Of a stretch of 49,812 bases of DNA, positions 585-48,988 are shown one piece after another. The notes beneath the pieces were generated by a model. It worked only from the letters and a program-made list of their open reading frames with translations, had not been told where the DNA came from and made no database searches. Location: positions 1 to 49,812 of the IMG/VR virus record IMGVR_UViG_3300018476_000001; one strand, given 5' to 3'. Positions within the stretch are counted from its first letter, which is position 1, and each line of letters starts with the position of its first letter. The translations under genes were made by a program, and so were the position numbers. Source of the stretch: a virus. Its lineage: Duplodnaviria > Caudoviricetes.

Positions 585-1066
585 CGGAAAAGCTCTTCGG
601 CGACATATCGAACAACGTGCTTGGCGGCGCGAACGGACGAGGGCCGCGCCGTCGAGTAGCGCGATCCTGGAATGCCCGTTGGCTCATCCCACCGGCAGAC
701 GTTTTCGAATATCTCCCACGCATAGCGCGGCACTTTCCCCTTGAAGTCAGCAAGCGTTCGAAGCGCTGCTGTGTGCGCTGCCCCGCCGTGTTCGAACTGG
801 CGCGGGCCGGGGCAGTTATTCCACAGGTCGGCGCAGTGTGCAAAAACCTTGATGTGCTGCGCCTCGAAAAACCCGTCGTTATCGTGAAGCCACCCGTCGA
901 TCACCTTGTGATCGATGTTGACGCTGACTCGGAAGTTGCCGCCGGGGTTGTCATTGCTCGACCACGGCACGCTGACGCTGCGCGTCCGGTAGCGGCTGTG
1001 TTGCTCGGCGCTGGGCTCGACGACCTGTCGGACTAACGCGCGTTTGATTTTGAGTGATGCGCTCAT
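581..1066 (-). CDS. Hypothetical protein
   Basis: ORF starting MSASLKIKR, coupled by ATGA overlaps at both ends. Confidence 0.7.
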   Translation of the reverse strand: MSASLKIKRALVRQVVEPSAEQHSRYRTRSVSVPWSSNDNPGGNFRVSVNIDHKVIDGWLHDNDGFFEAQHIKVFAHCADLWNNCPGPRQFEHGGAAHTAALRTLADFKGKVPRYAWEIFENVCRWDEPTGIPGSRYSTARPSSVRAAKHVVRYVAEELFR

Positions 1067-1149
1067 GCGATAGTCCGACACTCACCCGGAGGGCGGAGAC
1101 CGGAACGGGCTCCGTTCATGAGTGGCGGCGGTGCCGAAGGCAATCGCCC
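1067..1149 (+). repeat. Structured element E1 (orientation B)
   Basis: CACTCA/TGAGTG stem; cggagAccg-gaa-cggGctccg; ends tgccgaaggcaatcgccc. Confidence 0.85.
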
Positions 1150-1168
1150 AACCTGTGCATTTCCTGCA

Positions 1169-1354
1169 TCAGTTCCCATCTTCACCCCTCCTCCCTATGA
1201 GGTTGCGAAACTCTCGAAAGTCGCGGCGCATTTGCTCCCATGGATCGACGCCGATTTCGATGACGGGGCATCCCTTCGGCGGCTCGCTGTTTGAGTTGTC
1301 GCTCGTCCACACTTGCGCGAACCTCGGCGCGGCTTCACCCCTTCTTAGTGTCAT
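1169..1354 (-). CDS. Small hypothetical protein (61 aa)
   Basis: ATG at 1354 (MTLRRGEAAP...), fits operon packing. Confidence 0.5.
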   Translation of the reverse strand: MTLRRGEAAPRFAQVWTSDNSNSEPPKGCPVIEIGVDPWEQMRRDFREFRNLIGRRGEDGN

Positions 1355-1817
1355 GGCTGATCCCCGATGAAGGTTGGGCGTCCCGGCCTTCGGCCGTCGG
1401 GCTCTGCTCGCTTCGCTCATCGAGCCCCGCTTCGCGTGTCTCGCCCGCTGTCGCGGCGACGATCCCTGACGCGGCGCGGGCGTGGACCTCGCGCAGATCT
1501 GACTCTGCTGCCTCACGCCAGCCATCGCCGTGACGGAACCAATGTCCGAGGAACCGGTGAAGAAAGAACGCCTGCTCGTCCTCCGCCCGCTTCGGAATGT
1601 CGAAGCCTGCGGCCCGATAGACCCGCGAGAACCGAATGAACGTGAAGCACTGCCGGCCGAGGATGTCGGCCAACTCAGGCGTCAATTCATCGGGCCACGC
1701 CGCGTTAGGGACTAGCGGCTCTGCCTGAGACTGCGCAGCAGGCTCAGCCCCGAAGGGGCGCAGGCCCGGCGACGGCGAAGCCGACGCAACGCCCAATTCT
1801 CCTTTGTCCACAGACAT
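1335..1817 (-). CDS. Hypothetical protein; core paralogous to 9920..10372; both termini encoded by elements
   Basis: GGAGG RBS before ATG 1817; shared core AAWPDELTPxLADILGRQCFTF...FFLHRFLGHWFRHG. Confidence 0.8.
   Translation of the reverse strand: MSVDKGELGVASASPSPGLRPFGAEPAAQSQAEPLVPNAAWPDELTPELADILGRQCFTFIRFSRVYRAAGFDIPKRAEDEQAFFLHRFLGHWFRHGDGWREAAESDLREVHARAASGIVAATAGETREAGLDERSEQSPTAEGRDAQPSSGISHDTKKG
1376..1473 (+). repeat. Structured element E2 (orientation A)
   Basis: gggcg...gggct...cgagcc...gtctcg...gatccctgacgcg. Confidence 0.9.
1701..1794 (+). repeat. Structured element E3 (B)
   Basis: cgcgttaggga...tgagActgc-gca-gcagGctca...ccccgaagggg...cgccc. Confidence 0.9.
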
Positions 1818-1857
1818 TAAAACCTCCAGTCGATCTCGGCGAGAATGTCGGGGTGGG

Positions 1858-2262
1858 TCATGCCGAGTAATCCGGCAGCAGCCGCGGCATTTCGGCCGTC
1901 TCGTAGGCGTGGGCGATTTTGCGCCGAACCTCCTGCCCGACGAGCGTCCCATTCGGCAGCACGACGTTCGCCAGAAACTCATCCTCGAACAGGACGATGC
2001 CGCTCGCCACAGCCTCCAGCTTCGCCTTGATGACCAGCAGCAGGGCGCGCATGGCGACACGGCGATCCTGAGGGTCGCGGTCCTTGAGGCCGATGTAGAA
2101 GCGGACCTGTCGACCTTCCTTGGTGAAGGCGATCAGCCCCTCGTCCTCGCCCAGCATGTAGGCGAACTGCGCCCCATCGTAGCGGGCGACGACCGCGCGA
2201 ATGTCGGCTATGCTCTGCTCCACCGAAACCTTCGTGGTTTCAGCGTACCGGCGGGCGGCCAT
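1858..2262 (-). CDS. Phage hypothetical protein
   Basis: 134-aa ORF with GGAG RBS; first gene distal to attP. Confidence 0.8.
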   Translation of the reverse strand: MAARRYAETTKVSVEQSIADIRAVVARYDGAQFAYMLGEDEGLIAFTKEGRQVRFYIGLKDRDPQDRRVAMRALLLVIKAKLEAVASGIVLFEDEFLANVVLPNGTLVGQEVRRKIAHAYETAEMPRLLPDYSA

Positions 2263-2275
2263 TATCGGTCTCCAA

Positions 2276-2458
2276 GGTTAGCCACGAGAGGCGGGGCGGC
2301 GGCAGTTTTCCGTGCGCCTTCGGACGAGGTTAGACTAACTAAGGCGCTGTCCATAAACGGAAGGTACACTCCTTCCGGGCGCGCCACAACATCAAAGTTT
2401 TCCTTACGCATCAGCGGCTTGCTCCGGCGTTTGGCTAACCGAATTAGCCGGGTTAGAC
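2276..2458. promoter_or_regulatory. Putative integrase arm-type sites (GGTTAGMC)
   Basis: GGTTAGCC 2276, GGTTAGAC 2328 and 2451, inverted GGCTAACC 2433, flanking the core. Confidence 0.55.
2359..2386 (+). other. attP core matching a tRNA 3' end (T-arm plus acceptor, probably tRNA-Arg)
   Basis: GGAAGG-TACACT-CCTTCC-GGGCGCGCCA just beyond the integrase stop; CGGGCGCGCCA is typical of tRNA-Arg 3' ends. Confidence 0.75.
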
Positions 2459-3480
2459 AAACCCCCTCCTTCAAGAGCGTCCATCGCGGCGTCGGCCATG
2501 CGTGCCTGATCGGCTCCCCGGGTGTAGCGCGCGACCTCGGAATCGGTGCTGTGGCCGGTGATCGACTTGATGAGCTGGTTGGACAGCCCGAGCTCGGCCA
2601 TCCGCCGGGACGCGGCCTTCCGGAGCCCATGCGCCGCGCATTGAGGCAGGCCGGCTTCGACGCAGCGCTTCTTGAACCAGTTCCCGAGGCTTTCCTTCGT
2701 GAAGGGCGTCCCGCGCTCGGAAACGAGGAAGGTGGCGCCGCCGGACGGGCATGCGGCAATGGCCTCCCTCAGGCGCGGGTGAATGCGTATCGACAGAAGC
2801 GCGTCGGTCTTGAGCTGCCGCACCTTCACATAGCCGGGCTTGCGGGGATCCTCGCCCATGACGGCGGCATCGGAGCGCCGCTGGGCGGTGTAGAGGAAGA
2901 TGGCGAGCGCCAGCCTTGCCTTGGTGCTGATAGGATGGCGCTCCTGGAATTGCGTGATCTCAGGCTCGGTCCATTCGTGGAAGCCCTTGCCGGCATTCCC
3001 GAGGCCCTTGGCCGCCAGAGCTGGGTTGTCCGACCGCATCCCGAGGATGATCGCGTAATTGAAAAGCTGGCGCAGCCGCTTGAGCAGATTGTTCGCTGCG
3101 GCCGGAGTGTCGGCCATCTTCTCCATCAGCTTCTCGACGTTGAGCGCGCTCATGGTGGCGACGCGACGCTTGCCGAATGAGGCCCGGAAGCGCTCGAGCT
3201 CGCCGCGGTACGTCTTGCGCGTGCTTTCCTTGGGGATGCGCCGCCATGCCGTGCTACGGTAGAATTGGCTGATAAGATCGTCGAAGGTGCCCGGGGCGAA
3301 CCGTTCGGCGACGGGCGACGGCTCGCCATTTTTCCAAGCGAGATATTCTTTCCAGAAGTCATCCGTCCCCGGCAGCGCCTTGGGATAGAGGGTCGCCAGC
3401 CCCTTGCCACGGAAGCGCACCCGCATCCGCCCATGACGGTCGCGGAACTCGCTGGCGTAGGGCGGCAGCGTCCGATTCAT
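2404..3480 (-). CDS. int: Tyrosine recombinase / phage integrase
   Basis: Catalytic motifs TAQRRSD, HGLR, ITGH, ARY; ATG 3480 overlaps the stop of the upstream gene. Confidence 0.95.
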   Translation of the reverse strand: MNRTLPPYASEFRDRHGRMRVRFRGKGLATLYPKALPGTDDFWKEYLAWKNGEPSPVAERFAPGTFDDLISQFYRSTAWRRIPKESTRKTYRGELERFRASFGKRRVATMSALNVEKLMEKMADTPAAANNLLKRLRQLFNYAIILGMRSDNPALAAKGLGNAGKGFHEWTEPEITQFQERHPISTKARLALAIFLYTAQRRSDAAVMGEDPRKPGYVKVRQLKTDALLSIRIHPRLREAIAACPSGGATFLVSERGTPFTKESLGNWFKKRCVEAGLPQCAAHGLRKAASRRMAELGLSNQLIKSITGHSTDSEVARYTRGADQARMADAAMDALEGGGLSNPANSVSQTPEQAADA

Positions 3481-3650
3481 GCGAGGTCGGCCCATTCGTC
3501 GTTGTCATGCCGCTGTTTGCCGGTGGCGGGCAATATCTCAATGTTGCCGTTCGGGTCTATGCGGACGCGGCCGACGGACAGCCCGGCCGCGACGAAGCCC
3601 GAGACGGCGCGCTTGACGTCGGCTTTCGTAAAGCGGGCTGGAGCGGTCAT
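3477..3650 (-). CDS. Probable excisionase / recombination directionality factor
   Basis: 57-aa protein ARFTKADVKRAVSG...GRVRIDPNG immediately upstream of int. Confidence 0.65.
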   Translation of the reverse strand: MTAPARFTKADVKRAVSGFVAAGLSVGRVRIDPNGNIEILPATGKQRHDNDEWADLA

Positions 3651-3662
3651 GTCAGGCACCCT

Positions 3663-3738
3663 CGCCCCGATTGAAGCGGGAACCGGCGAGACGCGTAGCG
3701 GCTCGATCCGCGAAGCGGACGAAAGCGGGATAAGCGCC
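3663..3738 (+). repeat. Structured element E4 (B, lacks outer hairpin)
   Basis: gattgaagcg...cgagAcgc-gta-gcgGctcg-atccgcgaagcggacgaaagc. Confidence 0.85.
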
Positions 3739-3749
3739 TGAAAACACAG

Positions 3750-4664
3750 TCATTCCAGCCCCCCGGAAGGCTTGGTAACGGCGGCGAGGGCTTTGCCGAT
3801 ACGGCGCAGGTCGCCGACCGAATAGGCTGCGGCGGACTCTGTGTCCGTCTCAAGACAGTGGATCGTCGGGATCAGGGCATCAGGAACGCTTTCGGCGTAG
3901 AGACTCGCCTCGCGCGCGAACGGCTCCAGTACCTCTATCGATACGAGAACATGGTCGGGGGGTGACCCTGCTCCTTCGGCATAATCGACACAGTCTTTGC
4001 ATGACGGGTCGAACGCTCCGCTTCGATGCTCAGCGGCCGTCGGGCGAGTTTTGAGGAAGCCAGGGTCTTTCTGCCACGCCGCCGCGCAGTCCGCACAGGC
4101 TGGCATGATGTCGCTCTCATCGCTCACCGTCCCGACAGCCTCAGCCGTGCAAAACGAGCATCGTCCGTCCTCCGTCAGTCCATCAGGGGGTGAAGCGGCG
4201 AGGGCGGCGTAGAGGCGTCCCGCGATAGCCGATGCCCAGTGGCCCGGCGAGAAGGATAGGCGGCGACGGCCTAGCTGCTTGATGTCGAGCGGATGGCAGT
4301 TAGTGTCATCGCAGATTTCGTCCCACGTCGCCTGCATCGTTTCATCGACCAGTGTTTGAAGACGACGTTCGTCCAGCGCTTCTCTAAGTCCCCCATCTGT
4401 GGAGGAGATGGAGGCGAGGACGGCGCTGGCCTTGCTGCGGAAGCCGTCGGCGGCGTCACCACATTTCGCGACGATCTCCTGCCAAGAGAGGTCGGGCCAC
4501 GTCGCCTTAGCGAGCGCAATGGCCCCAAGCTCTACCACCTCCTTGTCCGGTAGAGGTGCGATGGCTACAGGAGTTGGGCGATGCCCTTCGGGCCGCTCTG
4601 CCGGGCTCCGCCCCGAGCCCGTTCCGGTCTCGGCCTGACGGCGGCTGCCGCTATCGCGGGTCAC
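3750..4664 (-). CDS. Mosaic hypothetical protein with CxxC motifs; N-terminus encoded by E5
   Basis: GTG start overlapping the upstream stop; CSFC, CADC, CKDC. Confidence 0.7.
   Translation of the reverse strand: MTRDSGSRRQAETGTGSGRSPAERPEGHRPTPVAIAPLPDKEVVELGAIALAKATWPDLSWQEIVAKCGDAADGFRSKASAVLASISSTDGGLREALDERRLQTLVDETMQATWDEICDDTNCHPLDIKQLGRRRLSFSPGHWASAIAGRLYAALAASPPDGLTEDGRCSFCTAEAVGTVSDESDIMPACADCAAAWQKDPGFLKTRPTAAEHRSGAFDPSCKDCVDYAEGAGSPPDHVLVSIEVLEPFAREASLYAESVPDALIPTIHCLETDTESAAAYSVGDLRRIGKALAAVTKPSGGLE
4576..4658 (+). repeat. Structured element E5 (A)
   Basis: gggcgatgcccttcgggc...ccgagcccgttccggtctcgg...ctatcgcg. Confidence 0.88.
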
Positions 4665-4867
4665 TGGAATATCCCCAGAGCGCCAATTAGTTTGGCCAGC
4701 GCCGCCATAATACAGAACGCGCCAGCCGCGCCTATTGTAAAGCCGAACCCCAGCAAGAACCCGACGCGAGCGCACTCCAGCGCCTTCTCCGGGAACAAAA
4801 TGTTCGTGAATTTGAGCGGATGCCCGTCCTGGTGTATGTGCAAATCGTTATAGAGTTGCGTCTTCAT
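4661..4867 (-). CDS. Small membrane protein
   Basis: MKTQLYND...; hydrophobic C-terminal half; ATGA-coupled. Confidence 0.7.
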   Translation of the reverse strand: MKTQLYNDLHIHQDGHPLKFTNILFPEKALECARVGFLLGFGFTIGAAGAFCIMAALAKLIGALGIFQ

Positions 4868-5331
4868 GCTGCCTCCTTCGTCCGATAACGGTTCTGATAT
4901 TCGGCAAGGCTGGGATCGGGGTCCGTCAGCTTGATCCCGTTCTCGACGCACTCGCGCTGCACCGCGTCGAGAAAGCGGACCATCTGCCGCACCCTCATTT
5001 CGCTCGTGACGGGGATGAACCGCATGGCCTCGACCTTGAGCTGGTACGGCAGCGGCTTGAGCGCCTTGTCGTAGAGCTCGCGGAACTCAGGGCTGTCCTC
5101 GCGCAGGATCGGCACGCCATGACGCAGCTTCCACTCACGCTGCAGCTCGTCGGGAGTCCGGTCCTGAAGCTGGAGAGCGGCTTCCGACGCCCACAGCCAC
5201 ATCAGGCTGTTCTGCTGGCCAGTCCTGTCCCGGCCGTCGATTGACGACACGGTGATCGGGAGCTTTCGCGACAGGAGGAACTTGATCCACAGATCGAGGT
5301 CTTCCGCGTTGGCGAGGATGCGTTCAGCCAT
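4864..5331 (-). CDS. NinB-like recombination protein
   Basis: RTGQQNSLMWLW motif and C-terminal TSEM...M.RFLD.V...GIKL resemble NinB. Confidence 0.7.
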   Translation of the reverse strand: MAERILANAEDLDLWIKFLLSRKLPITVSSIDGRDRTGQQNSLMWLWASEAALQLQDRTPDELQREWKLRHGVPILREDSPEFRELYDKALKPLPYQLKVEAMRFIPVTSEMRVRQMVRFLDAVQRECVENGIKLTDPDPSLAEYQNRYRTKEAA

Positions 5332-5590
5332 TTCTCACCTCGAAATTATGCCGGTTGAGCATGGCCAGATGGACCGTGTTGTGCCCCGTCTTTTCCTCGA
5401 ATTGCCGATCCCCGCCGAGGCTGTGCAGGAGCCGGTGACAGGCGTTGCACAGCTTCACGACCAGCCAATCGTCCTTGGTGATCCGCTGCCAGTTCACGTG
5501 GATAATGTGATGGATGCACTCCGCCGCGGCGCCGCATGGGCACCCGTCGGGCAGCCAGTCCCAATATCTCTGGACGGCAGCGGTCGCCAT
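5324..5590 (-). CDS. HNH-like zinc-binding nuclease (DUF968/Ref-like)
   Basis: CPCG...IHHI...LC..CH motif. Confidence 0.6.
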   Translation of the reverse strand: MATAAVQRYWDWLPDGCPCGAAAECIHHIIHVNWQRITKDDWLVVKLCNACHRLLHSLGGDRQFEEKTGHNTVHLAMLNRHNFEVRNG

Positions 5591-5799
5591 CAGGCAGCCC
5601 TCTCCGCTGCCCGCCTCGCCCGCGCTTTCGCAAGCTGGTTGGCGTTGAAGCACGTCCGGCACGTCCGCGTCCCGCAGTGCGTGATCATGGTGTTCTCGCG
5701 CGTGTAGGGGTGGCCCTTGCGGCAGTGAGTCACGGCTCCCCGCCAGCCCGCGCCCTTGCGGAGCTCGGGGTTCTGGAGAAGGGTGTCGACGGTGATCAT
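5590..5799 (-). CDS. Small Zn-binding protein
   Basis: THCRKGHPYTRENT...CRTC motif. Confidence 0.6.
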   Translation of the reverse strand: MITVDTLLQNPELRKGAGWRGAVTHCRKGHPYTRENTMITHCGTRTCRTCFNANQLAKARARRAAERAA

Positions 5800-6740
5800 G
5801 CCGTCACATTGTCCATGGCCGCGATTCCGCTTTCGTGGAGATCGTAGGCGAGTTGGAATGTGCGGCTCTCGGCGCCGTCGAGCGCTTCGATCGCGTCGGC
5901 GTTGGCGATGCTCCAGTTTTCGAGCATCTTCTTGGTGTCGCACTCCTTCATGCTGGCGATAAGCGGCTTGACCTCGCTGTCGTCGGCCAGCGGAGCAAGC
6001 TCCGCCTCGCGGCGAGCGATCCACGGGCCGAAGCCTTCGAAGTCCTCGCCGTCTCCGGTCCACCATCCGTGATTGGCGTCGCGGATCGTCTTGAGGTCGG
6101 CGCGGTTGTCGCGCTTGAGGTTCTTGAAGCCCTCCAACGTTATGTCGGAGGCGTCGCCGGCCGTCATCATCGCCCGCAGCCGCTCCTTGATCTTGGTGAT
6201 GCCCGGAACCGCGACGGCCTCGATGACCTCGCCGGTTTCGGGATCGTGGCGCGTGCCGTCGAAGCCCTCGACGGGAACTTCCTCGGCCGGCGTCGTCGCC
6301 AGCCCGGCGTTCATCATCACGACGACATGGGCGAAGGCCGACCGGCAGGCCCGCGAGATCGCCCGCGTCTGCGCCATGGCACGAATCGCGTAGTCGGCGC
6401 GCTTCGGAAGATCCTTGCCGCGCACCTTGCCGCCGTACCATGTCGGCTCATCCTCGCCGACGAAGCCCTCCCCGGTTGCTATGATCGTGCCGGTAAGCAT
6501 GTCCCTCACCTCGCCGACGGCCCTCACGCCCCCTTCGACGCGCTCGACGCCGGTAGCGCCCGCCGCGCACCCGTGCGCTCGAGCAATGGCCATCCAGCCT
6601 TCTACCGAGACGTAGCGCTTGCCCTGGATGTTGCTGGACGACGCAAGGACGATTTCCCTGCAAAGCTGCGCCGCGTTGGTGGAGGCGCGGTAGGCTTCCA
6701 CGTTCTCGGCATTGTTGGTGATCGGGACGACGGCGTTCAT
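5796..6740 (-). CDS. Putative ssDNA-annealing/recombination protein
   Basis: Start MNAVVPIT; IQGKRYVSVEGW, AMAQTRAISRA, TPAEE motifs; HDPETGEV linker; upstream of NinB. Confidence 0.5.
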   Translation of the reverse strand: MNAVVPITNNAENVEAYRASTNAAQLCREIVLASSSNIQGKRYVSVEGWMAIARAHGCAAGATGVERVEGGVRAVGEVRDMLTGTIIATGEGFVGEDEPTWYGGKVRGKDLPKRADYAIRAMAQTRAISRACRSAFAHVVVMMNAGLATTPAEEVPVEGFDGTRHDPETGEVIEAVAVPGITKIKERLRAMMTAGDASDITLEGFKNLKRDNRADLKTIRDANHGWWTGDGEDFEGFGPWIARREAELAPLADDSEVKPLIASMKECDTKKMLENWSIANADAIEALDGAESRTFQLAYDLHESGIAAMDNVTA

Positions 6741-6907
6741 TTGACGGCTCCTGCATGTTCGTGGAGATATTGAGAGGGGTGATCGCGGACCTCGCCGTAG
6801 GTCGGGAGGTCGCACTCGCAGTACGGATACAGCTCGCCGCAGACTGGGCAGCGATAGTCCTCGGGCGACTCCAGCGGCGGCGGATCGCGATAGCTCAGGA
6901 CGTTCAT
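6737..6907 (-). CDS. Small Zn-finger protein (56 aa, not in ORF track)
   Basis: MNVLSYRDPPP...CPVCGELYPYCEC; ATGA-coupled at both ends. Confidence 0.6.
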   Translation of the reverse strand: MNVLSYRDPPPLESPEDYRCPVCGELYPYCECDLPTYGEVRDHPSQYLHEHAGAVK

Positions 6908-6973
6908 TCGACCTCTCCCGCAATGGTGTGGTCGGGGGTGATTTGAGTTTGGATGGTCATGGCGTTGAACCTT

Positions 6974-7062
6974 GGGCGTCTCCCCCTTCGAGGGCCGGGC
7001 TCTCGCCTACGGCCGAGCCGCTGCGCGTCTCGTCGGCTGTCGCCGCTTCGATCCCTGACGCG
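6974..7062 (+). repeat. Structured element E6 (A)
   Basis: gggcg...ccgggct...cgagccgctgcgcgtctcg...gcttcgatccctgacgcg; inner end 1 nt from the stop at 7064. Confidence 0.92.
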
Positions 7063-7063
7063 A

Positions 7064-8248
7064 TCACAGCGCGATTCCGGCGGCTTTTTCAGATTGCAAA
7101 AGCAGCTCGTCGAAAAGCCAGGTCTGAAGCTGGCGCGTCATGTCGCTGTAGCCGGTCTTCAGGTGGACGAACTCTTCGAGCAGCGTGCTCGCAACCTCTT
7201 TGGTGCCTTTCTGGAAGGCGGCTTTGGCGATGAAAATGCGATCCTCTTTCGCGAGCCCGTAAACCCCTTCGCCAAGGTCTTCGACAATGGTGATGGGGTA
7301 GCGGTCCAAGTCGTAGCCGGCGGAGCGTAGGAAGCACTGAGCGCGATCAAAACGCTCCCGTTCGATGGGATGAAGATCAACGCTTTCGCTCGGGCCGAGA
7401 TCGGAAAGCGACATCATCCTAGCAAGCGCCATAGCTGACGGGTTAGCCTTGCCGATGTTGTCGAGGCGCCCACGCAATCCGGCAGCCACCCTCAAGAATG
7501 TGGGAGATGGTGAGTTGTGTTCGCGGAACGAGAGATGATGCTCTAGATACTGATCACCACAGGACAGAGCGCCGAGAACCAAATCCTCGCGGTCGCACTT
7601 GGCGAGGCCGAGCGTGATATGGGACTCAGCCTCCCAATCATATTTGATTGTGCGGTCTTCGGTGAGATCGATCTTCCGCAAGATGTTATAGGTATGGCTC
7701 GTCGGTCGACAGAGCGCGCCGACGCGCACATTCCTGTAATAAACGTGCCGTGACATTCCCGGCCGTATTTCGATAAAGTCGTTAGCATAGGCGGGCGCGC
7801 CTTCGAGGACGATCTCGCCGCGCGCATAATAGGCATCCTCAATCTCTTCCGACGCGACGGCAATGACGGTTTCGCTGTCTCCGATCTCGCCGATGTCTGG
7901 CCCGGAAGCGTAGTATCGGCCGCCTTCGTCCAAGGCGTTGCAGGCCAGTTCGCGGAAGGCCATCCAAGGCTTCCAGTCGCGGCCGAGAGAGGTGGTGAAG
8001 CCAAGTTCCTCGCCGTCGAAGGTGACGACGCTGAACGGCTTCCCGCGCACGTCCTTATCGATGGTGCCAAGGCGATGCTCGTCCTTGCCGCGATAGATCG
8101 TCACGGACCCGCCGCCTCGCAGGATGGTGGCGATGGCGAACTTTACCCCGGTGCCGAAGTAGCCAATCGCGCCCTCTTCCTTAACGGAGACGCCGAGAGT
8201 GCGCACCGCCGTCAAGTCAATGAGGCCGCCGTTTCGAAAAACGATCAT
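7064..8248 (-). CDS. GHKL (HATPase_c)-like ATPase with C-terminal zincin-like motif
   Basis: IGYFGTGVK (G2 box), RELACNALDEG (N box), TLLEEFVH. Confidence 0.65.
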   Translation of the reverse strand: MIVFRNGGLIDLTAVRTLGVSVKEEGAIGYFGTGVKFAIATILRGGGSVTIYRGKDEHRLGTIDKDVRGKPFSVVTFDGEELGFTTSLGRDWKPWMAFRELACNALDEGGRYYASGPDIGEIGDSETVIAVASEEIEDAYYARGEIVLEGAPAYANDFIEIRPGMSRHVYYRNVRVGALCRPTSHTYNILRKIDLTEDRTIKYDWEAESHITLGLAKCDREDLVLGALSCGDQYLEHHLSFREHNSPSPTFLRVAAGLRGRLDNIGKANPSAMALARMMSLSDLGPSESVDLHPIERERFDRAQCFLRSAGYDLDRYPITIVEDLGEGVYGLAKEDRIFIAKAAFQKGTKEVASTLLEEFVHLKTGYSDMTRQLQTWLFDELLLQSEKAAGIAL

Positions 8249-8260
8249 CGTACTGCTCCA

Positions 8261-8356
8261 GCGCCAGTGGATTGAAGCCCGTGAGGGTGGAGACGCGCAG
8301 CGGCTCCATCGCGAAGCGACGAAAGCCCGGTCGGCGCCGTAGGCGACGAGGCGCCC
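8261..8356 (+). repeat. Structured element E7 (B)
   Basis: ggattgaagc...tggagAcgc-gca-gcgGctcca...gaaagcccgg...cgccc. Confidence 0.92.
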
Positions 8357-8389
8357 AACCTTGCCATCACTTAGTGTATCCCAGGTAGG

Positions 8390-8647
8390 TCATTGGGGGT
8401 TCCGATCCGAGGTTTCGGGCGATGCGCTCGCTTCGCTCCCGCCGCTCTGGCTTGCTCCGCACTCAGCCTCGCTGCGCGAGTCTTCGCCCTTCGGGAGCCT
8501 GCTGCTATCGCGAAGGCACGACCACAGGAGCCCGAGCGCGCCCAGAATAAGCAACGCCGCAGCTAGGTGCTCCCCGTCAAACAGGCTGGTCACGCCCAGC
8601 GCCGCGCTCACTCCAGAGCCGAACAAGTTCCAGTCGCGAAGGCTCAT
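8390..8647 (-). CDS. Small membrane protein; C-terminus encoded by E8
   Basis: Hydrophobic segments; AAGGAG RBS. Confidence 0.7.
   Translation of the reverse strand: MSLRDWNLFGSGVSAALGVTSLFDGEHLAAALLILGALGLLWSCLRDSSRLPKGEDSRSEAECGASQSGGSEASASPETSDRNPQ
8417..8512 (+). repeat. Structured element E8 (A)
   Basis: gggcgatgc...cagcctcgctgcgcgagtcttc...cccttcggg...ctatcgcg. Confidence 0.85.
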
Positions 8648-8659
8648 ATAACGGCTCCT

Positions 8660-9148
8660 TTATGTGCGGGCGGGTAGCGGGTCTGGTTCGGGCGCGATGA
8701 CGACGCCCCCGGCGCCAATCTCTGTCGCGCCCGCGCTCCCGCCCGCGTTCGGTTTCAGCTTCACTCGCCCGACTTCCTGAAGGACGATGAAGGTGGACTC
8801 GGGGAAGGCGACCAACAGGCGCGCTGCCTCTGCCTCGGCCGCTTCGCGCGTCTTGTGGCGGAAGCTCGGCATCCGCTTACCGCCAGCTTTCTTGCTGAGC
8901 CCTCCCCTGCCGTGTGGCAGGCGCCGGTAGAGAAGGAACGAGCCGTCTTCCCACACCTTCGCCTCGGGAGCGTAGCGGTCGCGTTCGCGAAGAATGGCGT
9001 AGCGGGCGAACCGGAGGGCCACCAAGGTCTCTTCGCTGGAGAGACCGGCCGCAGCGCCCTGCAAGAGGTCGTCAAGTACCCTTAGCGCGCCGTTGTGGGC
9101 CGATCCGGGGTGGCCAACGGGGGCGATAGTGTCGAGGGCGTCAGGCAT
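8660..9148 (-). CDS. Hypothetical phage protein
   Basis: 162-aa ORF; HKTREAAEAEAARL...F.VL motif. Confidence 0.75.
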   Translation of the reverse strand: MPDALDTIAPVGHPGSAHNGALRVLDDLLQGAAAGLSSEETLVALRFARYAILRERDRYAPEAKVWEDGSFLLYRRLPHGRGGLSKKAGGKRMPSFRHKTREAAEAEAARLLVAFPESTFIVLQEVGRVKLKPNAGGSAGATEIGAGGVVIAPEPDPLPART

Positions 9149-9151
9149 CGT

Positions 9152-9325
9152 TCAAGCTCCTGCGAAGGCCGCGCACGCGGCGAAGAGGAAGAGGAAGAGC
9201 GCGGCGACCGCGTAGGGCTCCGCGATAGTTGACAGTCGGCCGAAGGCTGGAGACCGCTTGCGGGCTCCACTCGCGACTGGCGACGGTGCCGAAGGCAATC
9301 GCCCAAAAGGAAGCTCAGCCATCAT
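9152..9325 (-). CDS. Small membrane protein (57 aa); N-terminus encoded by E9
   Basis: MMAELPFGRLPSAP...TIAEPYAVAALFLFLFAACAAFAGA. Confidence 0.55.
   Translation of the reverse strand: MMAELPFGRLPSAPSPVASGARKRSPAFGRLSTIAEPYAVAALFLFLFAACAAFAGA
9221..9304 (+). repeat. Structured element E9 (B)
   Basis: cgcgatag; CAGTCG/CGACTG stem; tggagAccgc-tt-gcggGctcca; tgccgaaggcaatcgccc. Confidence 0.9.
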
Positions 9326-9396
9326 TCAAGCTCCAGAAAACAGGGGCAGGAGGATCGCAAGGACAAGAGCCTCGCCCGCGATAGTGAGGAGGAGCT

Positions 9397-9666
9397 TCAC
9401 AGCGATTCCACCTCCCCAAGCTCAAAGGATATGTCCCGCACCTTGTCGTACAGCCCATCGACTTCCGTCAGATCGTGCATCGCATTGACGAGGATCTTCC
9501 CCGCCTGGCTGGCGAACAGGTTCTCGCGAGACGCTTCCGCTCGAGCCGCCATTGCCGCGTTGATCACCGCGTCCAGTTTGACGAGCTGATCGGATGCCTC
9601 AAGGACCACCGGGCCTATCGTGCGCGCGCCCACAGCATTGCCGCCGCGATCTCTCCACGCGGTCAT
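9397..9666 (-). CDS. Hypothetical protein
   Basis: ATGA-coupled ORF in the left operon. Confidence 0.65.
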   Translation of the reverse strand: MTAWRDRGGNAVGARTIGPVVLEASDQLVKLDAVINAAMAARAEASRENLFASQAGKILVNAMHDLTEVDGLYDKVRDISFELGEVESL

Positions 9667-9923
9667 TTCGGTTGCTCCTCAAGGATGGCCCGGACCTCTA
9701 GGCCGAGAGGGGAGGGGTAAGCCTGTCGGAACAAGCCGCCCTCTGCCCTTGGGTCGATCAGTTCGCTTGGCAGGCCTTCGAACGCGGCGACGTTGAGCCG
9801 TCCGTTCGAGAAGCACAGCAACGACAAGTCTGATTGCTGCCCAGCAGTCAGCTTCCCGGTTATCTCCCGCGCGTTCATGGCTGCCCCGGTCCATGCTTCG
9901 CCGTCTTTGTTTGTGTCGGTCAT
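9663..9923 (-). CDS. Hypothetical protein
   Basis: ATGA-coupled ORF. Confidence 0.65.
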   Translation of the reverse strand: MTDTNKDGEAWTGAAMNAREITGKLTAGQQSDLSLLCFSNGRLNVAAFEGLPSELIDPRAEGGLFRQAYPSPLGLEVRAILEEQPK

Positions 9924-10372
9924 GGGTTTGATCCGGTTGGGTTTTCAGGGCTGGGCGCATCGGCGTTGCCGACCGCGCTCTCGTCTTCGACGGCACCCGT
10001 TCCGGTTGCCGCCCTGCGGGCTTCGATCGCTTGCGCGGCGCGAGTGTGCACCTCCCGCAAATCCGCCTCGGCGGCTGCTAGCCAGCCGCCACCGTGGCGG
10101 AACCAATGCCCGAGGAAGCGGTGAAGAAAGAACGCCTGCTCGGCTTCCGCCCTAGTCGGGATGTCGAACCCTGCGGCCCGGTAGACCTGCGCGAACTTGA
10201 TGAACGTGAAGCACTGGCGACCGAGAATGTCGGCCAGATCAGGCGTCAATTCGTCGGGCCACGCCGCGTTAGGGATGCCACTCTGCGAAGACCCGCCGCT
10301 TGGCGGGGCTGAGGCCGAAGGCTGGCAGCCCGACGGCGCGTCAGCGCCGGAACGCCCAACATCGCGGCTCAT
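9920..10372 (-). CDS. Hypothetical protein; core paralogous to 1335..1817, N-terminus near-identical to 48408..48860
   Basis: Direct sequence comparison. Confidence 0.85.
   Translation of the reverse strand: MSRDVGRSGADAPSGCQPSASAPPSGGSSQSGIPNAAWPDELTPDLADILGRQCFTFIKFAQVYRAAGFDIPTRAEAEQAFFLHRFLGHWFRHGGGWLAAAEADLREVHTRAAQAIEARRAATGTGAVEDESAVGNADAPSPENPTGSNP
9953..10037 (+). repeat. Structured element E10 (A)
   Basis: Central hairpin with compensatory changes (reverse strand cggcaAccg-gaa-cggGtgccg); ends gcttcgatcgcttgcgcg. Confidence 0.88.
10265..10357 (+). repeat. Structured element E11 (B), near-identical to E17
   Basis: cgcgttagggatgccactctgcgaagac...ggaacgccc. Confidence 0.92.
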
Positions 10373-10557
10373 ACCAACCCACCTTCACGAGCAAGACGGG
10401 AGGCGAGTTCACGCCTGACATCTTCGCCGCACGCGCAGTCGCAGATCGAGTAACTGGTCGAGACATTTTCGCCGGTCCAAATGCCGCCGTGCGATGTCTC
10501 CGCGTATCCGCTGTCGCCACAGCGTGGGCACGTTTCGTCTGCGATAGAGGGGGTCAT
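10369..10557 (-). CDS. Small Zn-finger protein
   Basis: CPRCGDSG...CDCACG. Confidence 0.65.
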   Translation of the reverse strand: MTPSIADETCPRCGDSGYAETSHGGIWTGENVSTSYSICDCACGEDVRRELASRLAREGGLV

Positions 10558-11042
10558 GCCGACACCCCGCGGGCCTTGGCGAGTGCGGCTAGCGCGCTTT
10601 CCCACGCATCTATGCAGCCGCTGTCGCCTGCGAAGTGATCGAACGCCGCCTCCATCGTTTTTGCTCGCGAGAGCGGCTTTTCGATTGCGGCCCCGTAGGC
10701 AATGAACATTTCGGCCAGATCGGCCACCGCCTCTGCGAGTTCAGGTGCGGCGGCGATAAGGTGAGCGTTGGCTTCGGCCGTCGGATCGTCTTCGTCGTCG
10801 AATAGGACCTCGGCAATGAACGTGTCGGGTGCGAACACGCCTCGCGACAGACAGCCGCCCATCGGCTCAAGAGTCTCCCCGAGTTTCCACGGCCCCTTCG
10901 TCCACCTTGCGCCAGTCGATGCCGACCCGGAGGGCGGAGACGCGTCAGCGGCTCCGTGCATCGCATCGGCAGCGCGGTCGTCGGCGTCAGCCGACGAGGC
11001 GCCCAACTCTTCCTCGAAATCTCCGTAACCTTCTGACATCAC
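10554..11042 (-). CDS. Phage hypothetical protein (TxGPW...ANAxLIAAAP family); N-terminus encoded by E12
   Basis: WTKGPW and EANAHLIAAAPEL motifs. Confidence 0.75.
   Translation of the reverse strand: MMSEGYGDFEEELGASSADADDRAADAMHGAADASPPSGSASTGARWTKGPWKLGETLEPMGGCLSRGVFAPDTFIAEVLFDDEDDPTAEANAHLIAAAPELAEAVADLAEMFIAYGAAIEKPLSRAKTMEAAFDHFAGDSGCIDAWESALAALAKARGVSA
10909..11004 (+). repeat. Structured element E12 (B)
   Basis: TGCCGA/TCGGCA stem closing three hairpins; cggagAcgc-gtca-gcgGctccg. Confidence 0.9.
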
Positions 11043-11072
11043 TCACATTCCTTCACGTCTGTCCTCGGGGAG

Positions 11073-11372
11073 TCAGGCGGCTTGCCCTTGTTCGCGCGCG
11101 TCTTCGTCGATCTCGTCGATGAAGGCCTTGGGGAATGTGCCCGCCTCGGCTTGAGCGCGCAGCTCGGGGACGGTGGGAACCGGCGGAAGTTCAGCGGTGA
11201 TCCAGTAAGTCGCGGCGGGCAGATGTCCGGCCTCGAGGTGCCAGCCGATCGCCGCGCTCATCGCGTCGGTGTGGTCCTTCGCGTCGAAGTCATCCGGCCC
11301 GACGCAAGTCAGGTGGCCGTCAAGAGCCTGCACGACGGCGAAGCGGATTGTATTGGGTGCGTCGGTTGCCAT
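11073..11372 (-). CDS. Hypothetical protein
   Basis: 99-aa ORF with GGAG RBS. Confidence 0.7.
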   Translation of the reverse strand: MATDAPNTIRFAVVQALDGHLTCVGPDDFDAKDHTDAMSAAIGWHLEAGHLPAATYWITAELPPVPTVPELRAQAEAGTFPKAFIDEIDEDAREQGQAA

Positions 11373-11443: not shown

Positions 11444-11683
11444 CTAGGCGAGCCCGAGGGCGGCTTTGTAGGTTTCGAGGAGCGCTTCGCTTTCCTGCCG
11501 ATCATGAGTTTCCATGCGGCGGAGGCGGACGATGGCGCGGATGGTGGGCGCGTCGTAGCCGCGAGCTTTCGCCTCGCCATACACGTCCTTGATATCGTCG
11601 GAGATCGCCTTCTTCTCCTCCTCAAGGCGCTCGATGCGCTCGATGAGGAGGCGGAGTTCGTCGGCGGCTACGGTGTCGGTCAT
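11444..11683 (-). CDS. gapR: GapR / DUF2312 nucleoid-associated protein homolog
   Basis: ADELRLLIERIERLEEEKKAISDDIKDVYGEAKARGYD...LLETYKAALG. Confidence 0.92.
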   Translation of the reverse strand: MTDTVAADELRLLIERIERLEEEKKAISDDIKDVYGEAKARGYDAPTIRAIVRLRRMETHDRQESEALLETYKAALGLA

Positions 11684-12412: not shown

Positions 12413-12558
12413 TGGCCACCCTCTCTCGCCAGCCGACGGAAATCGAAATCCGTCATTGGCTGATCCTCACCCGCTGCCGCATCTCCATGGCACACACGCC
12501 GCTCGATCCGACGCGGCTGATGAAGGCGCACAACGACAACCGAGGCGACGTCGCATGA
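12412..12558 (+). CDS. Small hypothetical protein
   Basis: Overlap-coupled between cro and the methylase. Confidence 0.5.
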   Translation: MATLSRQPTEIEIRHWLILTRCRISMAHTPLDPTRLMKAHNDNRGDVA

Positions 12559-13214
12559 CCGGCATGGGCCTCACCCTTCCCCCCGGTCCCTTCGGCTGCA
12601 TCCTCGCGGACCCGCCCTGGCGCTTCGCCACGTTCAGCGCGAAGGGGCGCGGACGCTGTCCGGACGGCCCGATCTCGCCGACGGCCACCCGCAACCTGCA
12701 GCGACAGAACCGCCCGGAGCGGCACTATCCGACGATGACCTTGGCCGAAATTCAGGCGCTTCCCGTTGCACGGCTCGCCGCCAAGGACTGCGTCCTCCTG
12801 ATGTGGGCAACGGACCCGCTGTTGCCGCAAGCCCTGCAGGTCGGTGCCGCCTGGGGCTTCACGTACAAGACGACCGGCTTCATCTGGGCAAAGGAGCGCC
12901 GCGTCACCAGCCGCCGGGGCGACGCCTTCTCCGATCCCGACGAGAAGCGCTTCCCGATGGGCACCGGCTACTGGACGCGCTCGAATCCCGAGCTGTGCCT
13001 GTTGTTCACCCGCGGCGCCCCAAGGCGCCTCTCCGCTGCAGTCCGCAAGCTTCTGATCGCCCCTCGCCGCGAGCACAGTCGGAAGCCCGACGAACAGTAC
13101 GAGCGGATCGAGGCGCTTGTCGGCGGACCCTATCTCGAGCTTTTCGCCCGCGCTCCTCGTGAAGGCTGGGCCGCATGGGGCAATGAGACCTCCAAATTCG
13201 CGGAGGCCGCATAG
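12555..13214 (+). CDS. MT-A70 family N6-adenine DNA methyltransferase
   Basis: ILADPPW, HYPTM, GTGYWTRSNPE, HSRKP, YLELFAR, WGNE. Confidence 0.92.
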   Translation: MTGMGLTLPPGPFGCILADPPWRFATFSAKGRGRCPDGPISPTATRNLQRQNRPERHYPTMTLAEIQALPVARLAAKDCVLLMWATDPLLPQALQVGAAWGFTYKTTGFIWAKERRVTSRRGDAFSDPDEKRFPMGTGYWTRSNPELCLLFTRGAPRRLSAAVRKLLIAPRREHSRKPDEQYERIEALVGGPYLELFARAPREGWAAWGNETSKFAEAA

Positions 13215-13553: not shown

Positions 13554-14228
13554 ATGGAGGCTGGGCGCATCCCCTTCGGGGACCGGGCTGGCGGTCCTGC
13601 GGACCCGAGCCGCCAAGGCGTCTCGGCCGAAGGCGCTCATCCCTTGCGCGACGATAGCCGGTGGTCGCTTGACGAGGCAGTCGCCCTCTGCCGCGAGATA
13701 GAGGCCATCTGCCCTGGCTACGGCTGCCACGTCGCGCTGACCGGCGGCACGCTCTACAAGGACGGGCGCCGCAAGGATTGCGACCTTCTCTTCTACCGCA
13801 TCCGCCAGTCGCCGCAGATCGACGAGGATGGCCTGTTTGCCGCGCTGGCGTTGATCGGCGTCACCAAGACGGGTGGCTACGGCTGGTGCCACAAAGCCGA
13901 GTATCGCGGGAAGGCTATCGACTGCTTTTTCCCGGAAGAGGACGGCGAGTATCCGACTGAGGAAGAGGTCGATTTCACGCCGGAAGATGTCGCGTGGGCG
14001 CTCAGCGATAGTGCGATTGAAGCGCGAAGCGGCGAGACGCTTGCGGCTCGATCCGAAGGACGAAAGCGCCGGTTCCGCGAAGCGGAAATCGCCCAGAATA
14101 TCCCGGATCAACTCCCCGATTCGAACGAACCGACACCGTCGCTCTACACCCAGGGATGCAACTGCAATCCGGTGCCGGTCCTCGATTCCTCCCTTCATGA
14201 AGCCGCACATCGCATCGAAAGGCGCTAA
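13554..14228 (+). CDS. Putative minimal nucleotidyltransferase-fold protein flanked by E13/E14-encoded peptides
   Basis: ALTGGTLYKDGRRKDCDLL fits hG[GS]x9-13DxD. Confidence 0.55.
   Translation: MEAGRIPFGDRAGGPADPSRQGVSAEGAHPLRDDSRWSLDEAVALCREIEAICPGYGCHVALTGGTLYKDGRRKDCDLLFYRIRQSPQIDEDGLFAALALIGVTKTGGYGWCHKAEYRGKAIDCFFPEEDGEYPTEEEVDFTPEDVAWALSDSAIEARSGETLAARSEGRKRRFREAEIAQNIPDQLPDSNEPTPSLYTQGCNCNPVPVLDSSLHEAAHRIERR
13563..13650 (+). repeat. Structured element E13 (A)
   Basis: gggcgcatccccttcgggga...ccgagccgccaaggcgtctcgg...atcccttgcgcg. Confidence 0.9.
14006..14094 (+). repeat. Structured element E14 (B)
   Basis: gcgattgaagcgcgaagcg-gcgagAcgc-tt-gcgGctcg-atccgaaggacgaaagc...aatcgccc. Confidence 0.9.
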
Positions 14229-15155: not shown

Positions 15156-15322
15156 CCCGCCGCGACGACACCCCGCCCGGCGGCTGGATAGGCCCCTCCA
15201 CGACCGGATGGCCCGACCTTATCGAGCATGATCCTCCTGCCCAGCATCGGACCTCCCTCGCCCACGCTGTCCGGGGAGACGGGAAGGGCGGGTGGATTTG
15301 GGGGAAGGGGCCGACGCCGTGA
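15152..15322 (+). CDS. Small hypothetical protein
   Basis: ATGA-coupled, MTRRDDTP. Confidence 0.5.
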   Translation: MTRRDDTPPGGWIGPSTTGWPDLIEHDPPAQHRTSLAHAVRGDGKGGWIWGKGPTP

Positions 15323-15324
15323 GC

Positions 15325-15747
15325 ATGACTAGGCTCCACGAGACTGTCGGCCTCGAGCGCTACAAAGCCGCGATGCTGGCGACGGCACAGGTTCTACGCG
15401 CACCTAAGGCAGCGCCGACCCCAAAGCTCAGCTTCCCCGAACGTACGCGCCTGCCGACACGGCGCATCATGATAGCCGACATCCAGGCCGAGGTCGCGCG
15501 CCACTATCAGATCCCAGAAAGCGAGATGCGATCGCCCAGCCATGTTCGCAAGGTCGCCTGGCCGCGGCAGGTCGCGATCTACCTGTCCCGACAGTTGACC
15601 GGCCGCAGCCGCACCGAGATCGGCAACTGCTTCGGCGGCCGCGACAGCTCGACCATATACACATCGTGCCGGGCAGTAGAGGCGCGTCGAGACGCCGATC
15701 CCCGCCTCGATCGCGTGATCCGCATGCTGGCCTCGAGACTGGCATGA
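15325..15747 (+). CDS. DnaA C-terminal (domain IV) HTH protein
   Basis: IQAEVARHY...PRQVAIYLSRQLT..S..EIG..FGGRDSSTI. Confidence 0.88.
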   Translation: MTRLHETVGLERYKAAMLATAQVLRAPKAAPTPKLSFPERTRLPTRRIMIADIQAEVARHYQIPESEMRSPSHVRKVAWPRQVAIYLSRQLTGRSRTEIGNCFGGRDSSTIYTSCRAVEARRDADPRLDRVIRMLASRLA

Positions 15748-16091: not shown

Positions 16092-16462
16092 AGGATGGGC
16101 GCGTGGCTGCGCCACCGGGCTCTCACCCTTCGGGCCACGCCGGCTGCGCCGTCGATGGCGCTTCGCGTTTCGATCCCTCGCGCGTGATTAAGTTGGGACT
16201 GCCGTGGCCGTGGCGCTTCCGCAAGATAGCCATTCGTGGCGACACCTGCTTTTTCTGGGCCTACTCGCGTCGGACCTTCGCCGTTGGGTTCGAAGACCTG
16301 CAGGACGGCTTTATCGTCTTCCTAGGCTGCTTCTGTATCGGCTGGGGCAGCATCTCGGCTGCGATGGACCGTGAGCCGGAATATTACACCCGAGCCGACG
16401 TGGATGCCCTCTACGAGAAACTGAGGGGTGTGAAGTTCTGCGATAGCGATGAAGCGGCATGA
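16082..16462 (+). CDS. Hypothetical protein; N-terminus encoded by E15
   Basis: AAGGAGG RBS; 126 aa. Confidence 0.7.
   Translation: MRIEDGRVAAPPGSHPSGHAGCAVDGASRFDPSRVIKLGLPWPWRFRKIAIRGDTCFFWAYSRRTFAVGFEDLQDGFIVFLGCFCIGWGSISAAMDREPEYYTRADVDALYEKLRGVKFCDSDEAA
16097..16184 (+). repeat. Structured element E15 (A)
   Basis: gggcgcgtggctgcgccaccgggct...tttcgatccctcgcgcg. Confidence 0.88.
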
Positions 16463-45210: not shown

Positions 45211-45243
45211 GATCGCAAGGCCAATCTGGCAGGAGAAACGACC

Positions 45244-45378
45244 ATGAACGACAAACGCAAAGACGAGGACAGGGGGCGCCCGCCCACCGCAGAGCCGCTG
45301 GATGGCGGCGGCACTGGCAACCCGCCGGCACCACCGCCGCCTCCCCCGCCCCCAACTCCTCGCGATCCCGACGAGTAA
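45244..45378 (+). CDS. Small Pro-rich protein (44 aa)
   Basis: AGGAG RBS; MNDKRKDEDRGRPP... Confidence 0.5.
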   Translation: MNDKRKDEDRGRPPTAEPLDGGGTGNPPAPPPPPPPPTPRDPDE

Positions 45379-45906
45379 ATGTCGCTTCCCGCATTCGTCA
45401 TGTGGGCGGTCGTGGCGGGGATCGGTTTCCCCGCCGCGTTCCGTTTCCGGAAGAGAGGCTTCATCGTGCATGTCCGCAACCGGACTGCGCTCGCGCTATG
45501 CGTGGCATGGCTGTGCGGGGAGCTGATATGGAGAATGACGGGCGAGAACCTGCCCATCACGCTCTATTTCATACTCGACTATTTCGTCCTGCTGGTGATC
45601 TTCACCAAGCCCGAACTCCGCGATCTCTCGCCGTACCGCACCTTCGCCGACCAGATGAAGGCGCTGGTGAAAGAGCGATCGAAAGAGGACGTGTTTATCG
45701 CCTGCATCTTCCCCGTGATGTGGGCCGTCTACGTGGCGAACATTGGGGACTTCTATCGTTGGTGGATGCTGTGGGGCCTCGTCCAGCTTCAATTCTACGC
45801 GGCCGGTTGGGAGGCGTGGGGCCTCTGGCGAGCGGCGCGCGCGGAAAAGGCGCTCGATAACAAACCTCCCGGCCTTTTCAAGCTGGGGATGGCAGGCCAT
45901 GGGTGA
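45379..45906 (+). CDS. Multi-pass membrane protein
   Basis: Several hydrophobic segments. Confidence 0.75.
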   Translation: MSLPAFVMWAVVAGIGFPAAFRFRKRGFIVHVRNRTALALCVAWLCGELIWRMTGENLPITLYFILDYFVLLVIFTKPELRDLSPYRTFADQMKALVKERSKEDVFIACIFPVMWAVYVANIGDFYRWWMLWGLVQLQFYAAGWEAWGLWRAARAEKALDNKPPGLFKLGMAGHG

Positions 45907-47882: not shown

Positions 47883-48090
47883 TCATTTCAGGCGAGTCCT
47901 CACCGGGATGGAATAGCGAGTAGGTGCTTAGCCCCGCCTCGATCATCTCCTCAGTGATTTCTCGTTCTAGCGCCGGCCCGTCGCCTTCGCCTATCTGGTT
48001 TTCGTCATGGTACGTCAAGTGGGGTATCCCCCTCGCGATAGTCGATTGAAGCCTTTGGTGGAGACGATTTATCGGCTCCATGCGTAGCAC
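47842..48090 (-). CDS. Hypothetical protein
   Basis: EITEEMIEAG motif; end of the left operon. Confidence 0.55.
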   Translation of the reverse strand: MLRMEPINRLHQRLQSTIARGIPHLTYHDENQIGEGDGPALEREITEEMIEAGLSTYSLFHPGEDSPEMIIRQVYLAMRACA

Positions 48091-48136
48091 GAAAGCGACG
48101 GTTTGCGCAGCAAAATCGCCCTCACTCCGGAGTAGG

Positions 48137-48897: not shown

Positions 48898-48988
48898 GGG
48901 CGCCTCGGCTACGCCGACCGCGCTACCCTTGCTGCGCACGGAGCCCCGTTCCGGGTCTCCGCCCTTCGGGAGGGTATCGACTGGCGCG
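48898..48988 (+). repeat. Structured element E18 (A)
   Basis: TACCCT/AGGGTA stem; cggagccccgttccgggtctccg; ends atcgactggcgcg, 1 nt from the stop at 48990. Confidence 0.9.

Follow-up and report, generated by a model that had tools for sequence, protein, structure and literature searches.

How can one gene core come to lie between different flanking sequences, and one flanking sequence beside different cores, within a single phage genome? This question is raised by positions 9953–10357 of the stretch of DNA analysed here (the window, 49,812 nucleotides), where a sequence-only reading had proposed that cores and flanks were exchanged by crossover at the motif CGCGTNAGGGA. The window represents a circular temperate phage (104-bp terminal overlap) with genes for an integrase, NinB, a replication initiator, terminase, head proteins and GapR, and the closest cultured match for its repeated element, a Sphingopyxis phage, suggests that the host may be a sphingomonad. 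A covariance model built from 80 copies of the element, 13 of these from the window, recovered 19 window copies of a multi-hairpin structure of about 90 nt, 14 of which form seven inverted pairs and none of which lies between 16184 and 48034. These copies, their cores and the recombination genes of the window are as follows.

9953–10037, minus strand: E10, folded element with its GNA-loop strand on minus, coding for the C-terminal peptide of the ORF at 9920–10372
10038–10264, minus strand: core B, 227 bp, a phage domain of about 75 aa without Pfam or PHROG match
10265–10357 (or 10358), plus strand: E11, folded element inverted relative to E10, with its GNA-loop strand on plus, coding for the N-terminal peptide
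9920–10372, minus strand: 150-aa ORF through E11, core B and E10
1376–1473, minus strand: E2, left element of the paralogous unit
1474–1700, minus strand: core A, 227 bp, 83% identical to core B
1701–1794, plus strand: E3, right element of the paralogous unit
1335–1817, minus strand: 160-aa ORF (P0002) through E3, core A and E2
48417–48510, minus strand: E16, its inner end reading CGC then A, not CGCG
48511–48749, minus strand: core C, 239 bp
48750–48839 (or 48840), plus strand: E17, a near copy of E11 differing mainly in one hairpin arm
48408–48860, minus strand: 150-aa ORF through E17, core C and E16
6974–8356: inverted pair (6974–7062 and 8260–8356) enclosing a 394-aa phrog_8203 gene
8417–9304: inverted pair (8417–8512 and 9221–9304)
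13563–14094: inverted pair (13563–13650 and 14004–14094)
48898–48988, minus strand: element paired with 1066–1149 across the circular origin
1066–1149, plus strand: element paired with 48898–48988 across the origin
3663–3739, plus strand: unpaired element, degenerate
4576–4658, minus strand: unpaired element
10908–11004, plus strand: unpaired element
16097–16184, minus strand: unpaired element whose outer flank is shared with phage record G437, there with another element and core
48034–48121, plus strand: unpaired element
5796–6740, minus strand: candidate single-strand annealing protein, clustering with Erf proteins of relatives
4864–5331, minus strand: NinB/Orf recombination mediator
2404–3495, minus strand: ordinary phage tyrosine integrase, without integron-integrase match

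The early region also carries an MT-A70-type methyltransferase gene (12456–13214) and a gene for a GapR-like DNA-binding protein (11444–11683).

In each of the three units with cores A, B and C, a single ORF reads through element, core and element, and none of these fused ORFs matched Pfam or PHROGs. Cores A and B agree without gaps at 189 of 227 positions (83%), with mismatches distributed 7/7/24 over codon positions 1/2/3, and 20 of their 77 codons differ synonymously and 11 by replacement; this preponderance of third-position differences marks them as old paralogues under protein constraint. Their match extends by only four bases (CGCG) into the left elements and by 11 bases (CGCGTTAGGGA) into the right elements, which are otherwise 63% (left) and 66% (right) alike. 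E11 and E17, conversely, are 90.4% alike across 94 bases, yet border cores that are unrelated (the E11- and E17-bearing ORFs are nonetheless 150 aa each), and their match breaks off past CGCG on the core side and also directly beyond TGGGCG on the outer side. No relatives of core C were found among proteins of 82–263 aa. Core B occurs with other element types, as judged from the P0003 and P0011 peptides, and also without elements: its distant homologues had no element across 26 loci.

The similarities on which the sequence-only reading was built (close paralogous cores of equal length between differing flanks, and E17 as a near copy of E11 beside an unrelated 239-bp core) are thus confirmed as a real feature of this genome. 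The argument from the window is partly circular, because the similarity of any repeat necessarily stops at its own edge. Within the window, the elements flanking the old A/B duplicate would have been exchanged later, and the common ancestor of E11 and E17 would be more recent than that of the two cores.

Pattern scans and 43 phage records yielded 344 copies of the element, 335 of them distinct, with 1 to 19 copies per record; because these records were picked for holding a copy, they provide no estimate of prevalence. The copies are mostly 55–75% alike and share a fold with a 5-bp closing stem, an inner stem and three or four hairpins. At the closing stem, 304 of 333 copies had variable dinucleotides that complement each other, whereas shuffles averaged 50 and peaked at 74; the observed count is somewhat inflated by an end-picking script that preferred complementary ends. 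Compensatory pairing, with changes on both sides, was seen in 12 of 18 pairs, and the covariation score was reached by none of 500 shuffles. Two positions, which lack a pairing partner in 79 of 80 rows and in 79 of 79, place an A opposite a G, and these fixed A·G mismatches are, together with GCG/CGC, the almost invariant parts of the element. Loops are mostly GNA on the GNA-loop strand, which was the better folder in 324 of 333 copies with DNA energies and in 255 of 333 with RNA energies. DNA accommodates both GNA loops and sheared G·A pairs stably, and the element, as modelled, is probably a single-stranded DNA fold. On the opposite strand, the TNC loops (n = 325) divide into 158 that do not fit an RNA UNCG loop and 167 that do, and a search of the window against Rfam returned no match. 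In two comparisons (G428:34119 with L313:2110, and L160:40 with L236:301) the flanks are nearly identical and the inner hairpin arms have been replaced, indicating that the arms are modules too.

Among 149 adjacencies within 3 kb, 77 were inverted with inner edges facing, and the other layouts numbered 38, 18 and 16. Of the 78 copies that could be classified, 67 had the CGC (inner) edge on the side of the gene body (p 7e-11); the other 55 of the 133 were unclassifiable. Among 65 units, the gap between the two elements belonged to a single frame class in 39 (p 1e-5), and a stop-free frame ran across both elements in 41, compared to 30% of controls; the elements use several reading frames, and one transcript can hold elements of either orientation (72 and 61 copies). 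The 77 enclosed cores are nearly all mutually unrelated, and those assignable to a family are accessory genes (such as DNA methyltransferases, HNH nucleases and dCMP deaminase), in which the match often starts at the very first residues.

Related phages reveal where the switches fall. Of 22 pairs that share an outer flank but differ in the inner flank, eight (five slots) switch at the inner edge, six at the outer edge or linker and three in the interior of the element; five were dropped (two with possible diverged methyltransferase homologues, one with a mis-parsed end, and two from one ambiguous slot). A further 45 pairs with the same inner flank, mostly from one small-phage clade, were excluded from the event count. 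In the inner-edge pairs the outer flank and element are 89–97% alike and the cores unrelated, with identity running for 19–75 bases up to CGC and then for 0, 0, 0, 0, 1, 1, 5 and 5 bases, so that the edge is CGC and not CGCG. The exchange at the inner edge thus recurs outside the window; what does not survive is the motif itself. The full CGCGTNAGGGA is present in only five of the 19 window copies and absent at E10 and E16; a G follows CGC in 13 of the 18 window copies ending in CGC and in 206 of 333 copies of the phage set, and this base differs between partners in four of the eight inner-edge pairs. Nor are switches confined to the inner edge: with six further slots at the outer edge and three within the element, 11 of 14 mapped slots switch at either end of the stem. 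Outer-edge switches are spread over about 0–11 bases, and core homology begins 0–15 bases past the element edge. A T-to-C shadow was not seen beside these elements, the counts being 114 against 113 on inner flanks (23 pairs) and 85 against 82 on outer flanks (28 pairs).

Individual comparisons show the enclosed gene being replaced. The slot gene of phage record G419 is present without elements in G409, and the matching slot of G409 holds another core; elsewhere, G409 contains an element-core-element unit (44664–45535) that is absent from G419 (37023–37046) and is bounded by 11-bp direct repeats copying the start of the downstream gene. In another record (G406), an identical element lies between unrelated flanks. 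Unrelated cores in the same slot of related phages show that one gene has taken the place of another at sites bracketed by elements. The elements account for a minority of mosaicism: of 624 homology ends in the accessory arms, 590 lay away from elements (expected, 586) under strict settings that likewise break up matches within the variable arms, and no global enrichment of homology ends at elements was seen. Among element-free homologues of cores, CGC was present at the junction in 1 of 19, and the last 8 bases of capture junctions showed a weak excess of matches (51 vs 41, p 0.047), so homology does not explain the capture of new genes. Empty sites numbered zero and zero in two pattern scans of viral contigs covering some subtypes of the element, and none of the element-free homologues inspected by eye (35 of inner flanks, 23 of outer flanks) joined both flanks of a single element.

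The genes common among the 43 records include a replication initiator (32/43), the Erf-containing cluster (27/43) and the NinB cluster (19/43); for the Erf-related protein of the window, a likeness to Rad52/Sak is a lead only. No gene convincingly tracked element number when 13 element-rich were compared with 14 element-poor records (best p 0.011, uncorrected). A protein with a DnaA C-terminal DNA-binding domain, encoded in the window at 15292–15747, was present in seven of the 13 element-rich records and in one of the 14 element-poor ones (p 0.011, uncorrected). No Y1/HUH transposase was detected among 57 shared proteins or the 61 scanned ORFs of the window, and an integron integrase was rejected: the window integrase had no TIGR02249 match, and the other integrase cluster scored 39 against a cut-off of 265. 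No dedicated recombinase, element-binding protein or enzyme was thus identified among the phage proteins scanned, and with neither an empty junction nor a gene tied to element-rich phages, the site-specific crossover that had been proposed is unproven.

The element is not confined to phages with inverted pairs. Its inner end and its central stem, with A·G mismatches and a GCGTTAGGGAT-type end, are also those of Flavo-1 (RF01705), a motif reported as an RNA of Bacteroidota with no known function, and the seed rows published in the accessible part of that description start like the inner end of E11 (PMC2864571). AT-richer members of the element score 27–35 bits against RF01705, under its gathering score of 42; the window has no match at E values up to 1, and neither the F region nor VSN-002, a Sphingopyxis phage in culture, has a match at threshold. 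The phage element differs from Flavo-1 in its four-way inner junction, its position inside ORFs and its inverted pairs. Judged from these resemblances in sequence and fold, the element is related to the orphan Flavo-1 motif but has diverged from it, falling below the Flavo-1 threshold.

Two full-length model matches (67 and 61 bits) lie in the leading region of F, at L417:23092–23174 and L417:28480–28562, corresponding to F plasmid positions 58091–58173 and 63479–63561, and near copies are present in 4,309 plasmid records. Both F copies sit at the edge (start) of the repeated Frpo regions, Frpo2 and Frpo1, on the same strand as the ssiD sequence and about 95 bases beyond its end, as ssiD is given in the accessible text of PMC9849209 and PMC11541004. 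An identity with the Frpo/ssiD promoter was rejected, the element lying outside ssiD as published there and having no -10/-35 boxes.

Single copies are also present in a gokushovirus record and in microvirus- and inovirus-like contigs (a likeness judged from size and proteins), where they occupy a gene-free gap (L150, L153, L160, L164, L184, L196, L216 and related loci). Among the microvirus-like contigs, the GNA loops lie on the coding strand in four and on the opposite strand in seven, which weakens a simple priming role. A likeness to the PriA primosome assembly sites of phiX174 and ColE1 was rejected: the element model (R1) found no match in the phiX174 genome and a best E of 6.9 in ColE1. 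In sphingomonad chromosomes, the pattern matched in 5 of 401 genomes, and all three of the matches checked with the model scored; a pattern scan of GTDB gave mostly chance matches, with 3 of 120 loci scoring with the profile. The cultured phage VSN-002 carries four copies, two of them inside one gene: gene_19 (L420:13749–14306), hypothetical and directly after NinB, starts and ends in an inverted element pair. Directly oriented copies (L034:1372–1452 and 2933–3021; L059:2932–3021) lie among SSB, toprim and similar genes; judged from its ORFs, this could be the leading region of a conjugative element that has integrated. At four loci (L187, L206, L255, L256) the element adjoins a small gene resembling that of a terminase small subunit, and in three of these it lies immediately behind a TTGACA hexamer.

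The explanation that we favour, and to which we give an even chance of being correct, is that the elements serve as portable folded joints for the annealing-type recombination of the phage, with fold and reading frame acting as filters. Such recombination would act on the short conserved ends of the fold and replace the enclosed gene, and a host replication or repair protein that binds the fold on single-stranded DNA may keep it conserved, as suggested by the single copies in the F leading region and in small ssDNA phages. Between diverged copies, most surviving crossovers would be those at the two ends, held close to each other by the closing stem, since one in the middle of the element breaks the fold and one out of frame breaks the fused protein. 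Annealing proteins tolerate diverged or short homology, which favours this explanation: in the accessible text of PMC2896510, recombination by Redβ works on DNA that is 22% divergent, and sequences of 40–50 bases are paired by enzymes of this kind. However, element copies only 55–75% alike are at or beyond the divergence cited for Redβ, and the data may fit a hot spot at the stem base and selection against chimeric folds alike. Alternatively, an enzyme, probably one of the host, would recognise the fold in single-stranded form and cut or exchange strands at the base of the closing stem, so that any DNA could be joined at the CGC edge; this is the crossover of the sequence-only reading with its site moved from CGCGTNAGGGA to the stem base. 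We consider such structure-guided cutting and joining rather unlikely, but it is kept alive by the clustering of switches at stem ends (11 of 14 mapped slots) and by the capture of cores from element-free genes without CGC homology; it would also account for identity that runs 19–75 bases up to the edge and only 0–1 base past it in six of eight inner-edge pairs, for the identical G406 element between unrelated flanks, and for the near-invariant GCG/CGC and A·G mismatches. It is at odds with the scatter of outer-edge switches (about 0–11 bases) and of core homology starts (0–15 bases past the edge), with the three slots that switch inside the element, with the lack of empty junctions in two scans of viral contigs, and with the failure to find a gene tracking element number, a Y1/HUH transposase or an integron integrase. 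Its fuller form, equally tentative, is a gene-capture system in which two inverted, folded single-stranded DNA sites make up a fixed expression slot and a conserved host enzyme cuts or joins at the stem base; ribosome site, start and stop would then come from outside, and almost any gene body could be loaded in frame.

By contrast to either form of recombination at joints, the elements might be selfish REP- or MITE-like repeats that insert themselves and survive near gene ends where they remain in frame, with pairs and swaps as by-products of the mosaicism usual in phages at gene borders. The range of 1 to 19 copies per record, the 335 variants and the several reading frames are as expected of such repeats, as are mosaic ends that mostly lie away from elements and the fact that the E11/E17 and G406 pairs differ on both sides. 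Independent insertion, however, predicts no polarity, and 67 of 78 copies turn their inner edge to the gene body; no element-free homologue joins the flanks of a single element (35 inner and 23 outer, by eye), the sole presence/absence case (G409 vs G419) removes a whole element-core-element unit, and sphingomonad chromosomes seldom carry the element (5/401), leaving self-insertion improbable. That the elements lie within transcribed and translated DNA, that Flavo-1 is filed as an sRNA in Rfam and that 167 of 325 TNC loops fit UNCG RNA loops would agree with a role as RNA (as processing, stability or translation signals of the early transcript), the swaps then being plain homologous recombination as in the PeSL cassettes of T4-type phages. 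This is very unlikely, since 72 and 61 copies have opposite orientations in one transcript, positions 8200–11100 contain no promoter-like site and no terminator-like site within elements, strand asymmetry is stronger with DNA than with RNA energies (324 vs 255 of 333), and Flavo-1 matches in Flavobacterium psychrophilum are sense, antisense or outside transcribed regions in the accessible text of PMC9723704. A chimera assembled through repeats is conceivable for a metagenomic contig with internal repeats, but we discount it almost entirely: a contig from the sole listed run covers 900–11200 with zero differences to the window, a second contig of that run, which is possibly the source of the window and hence not independent, holds the E17 copy with its own core, and dozens of records as well as a cultured phage show this layout too.

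How do these joints compare with known systems? Integron attC sites likewise fold as single strands in which certain bases always stay unpaired, and they exchange variable cargo near the base of the stem, but they form direct repeats with RYYYAAC...GTTRRRY polarity. The phage element is inverted, has a branched fold and no IntI, and its core-site polarity is reversed: its fold has GTT at the 5' end and AAC at the 3' end, and an attC identity failed on this polarity and on the inverted pairs. The PeSL cassettes of T4-type phages work in a similar way: they are repeats of about 100 bp in variable regions, flanking ORFans and proposed to be shuffled by recombination (PMC2839356, in its accessible text), just as the present elements flank variable genes that differ between close relatives. 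According to the same text, PeSLs are intergenic promoter-terminator units from which recombination excises mini-circles, leaving one element. The elements described here are inverted and translated in frame, without a promoter-like site or a collapsed site being found, and failed both as promoter plus terminator (0 promoter-like sites in 8200–11100, the sole terminator-like site there outside elements) and as direct repeats that collapse (inverted pairs 77/149, and no collapsed junction in the scans). Lambdoid boundary sequences are short conserved sequences at module junctions (PMC3029335, as far as its accessible text goes), comparable to the outer linker of about 45–60 bp plus element; the family described here differs in being dispersed, kept by structure rather than sequence, and placed within the reading frame.

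A literature search, thin in subscription papers, returned no account of these phage elements. The sharp mosaic boundaries of phages are an old question, and conserved joints are said, in the accessible text of PMC3029335, to be missing at most of them; here, a family conserved in its fold marks repeated in-frame gene swaps. The element is already kin to a known but unexplained motif, and its form as inverted pairs in phages is new: the fold ties to Flavo-1, unexplained since 2010, and adjoins the single-strand promoters of F. If the gene-capture reading were true, the same orphan fold would serve F-type plasmids and small ssDNA phages singly, and this would explain Flavo-1.
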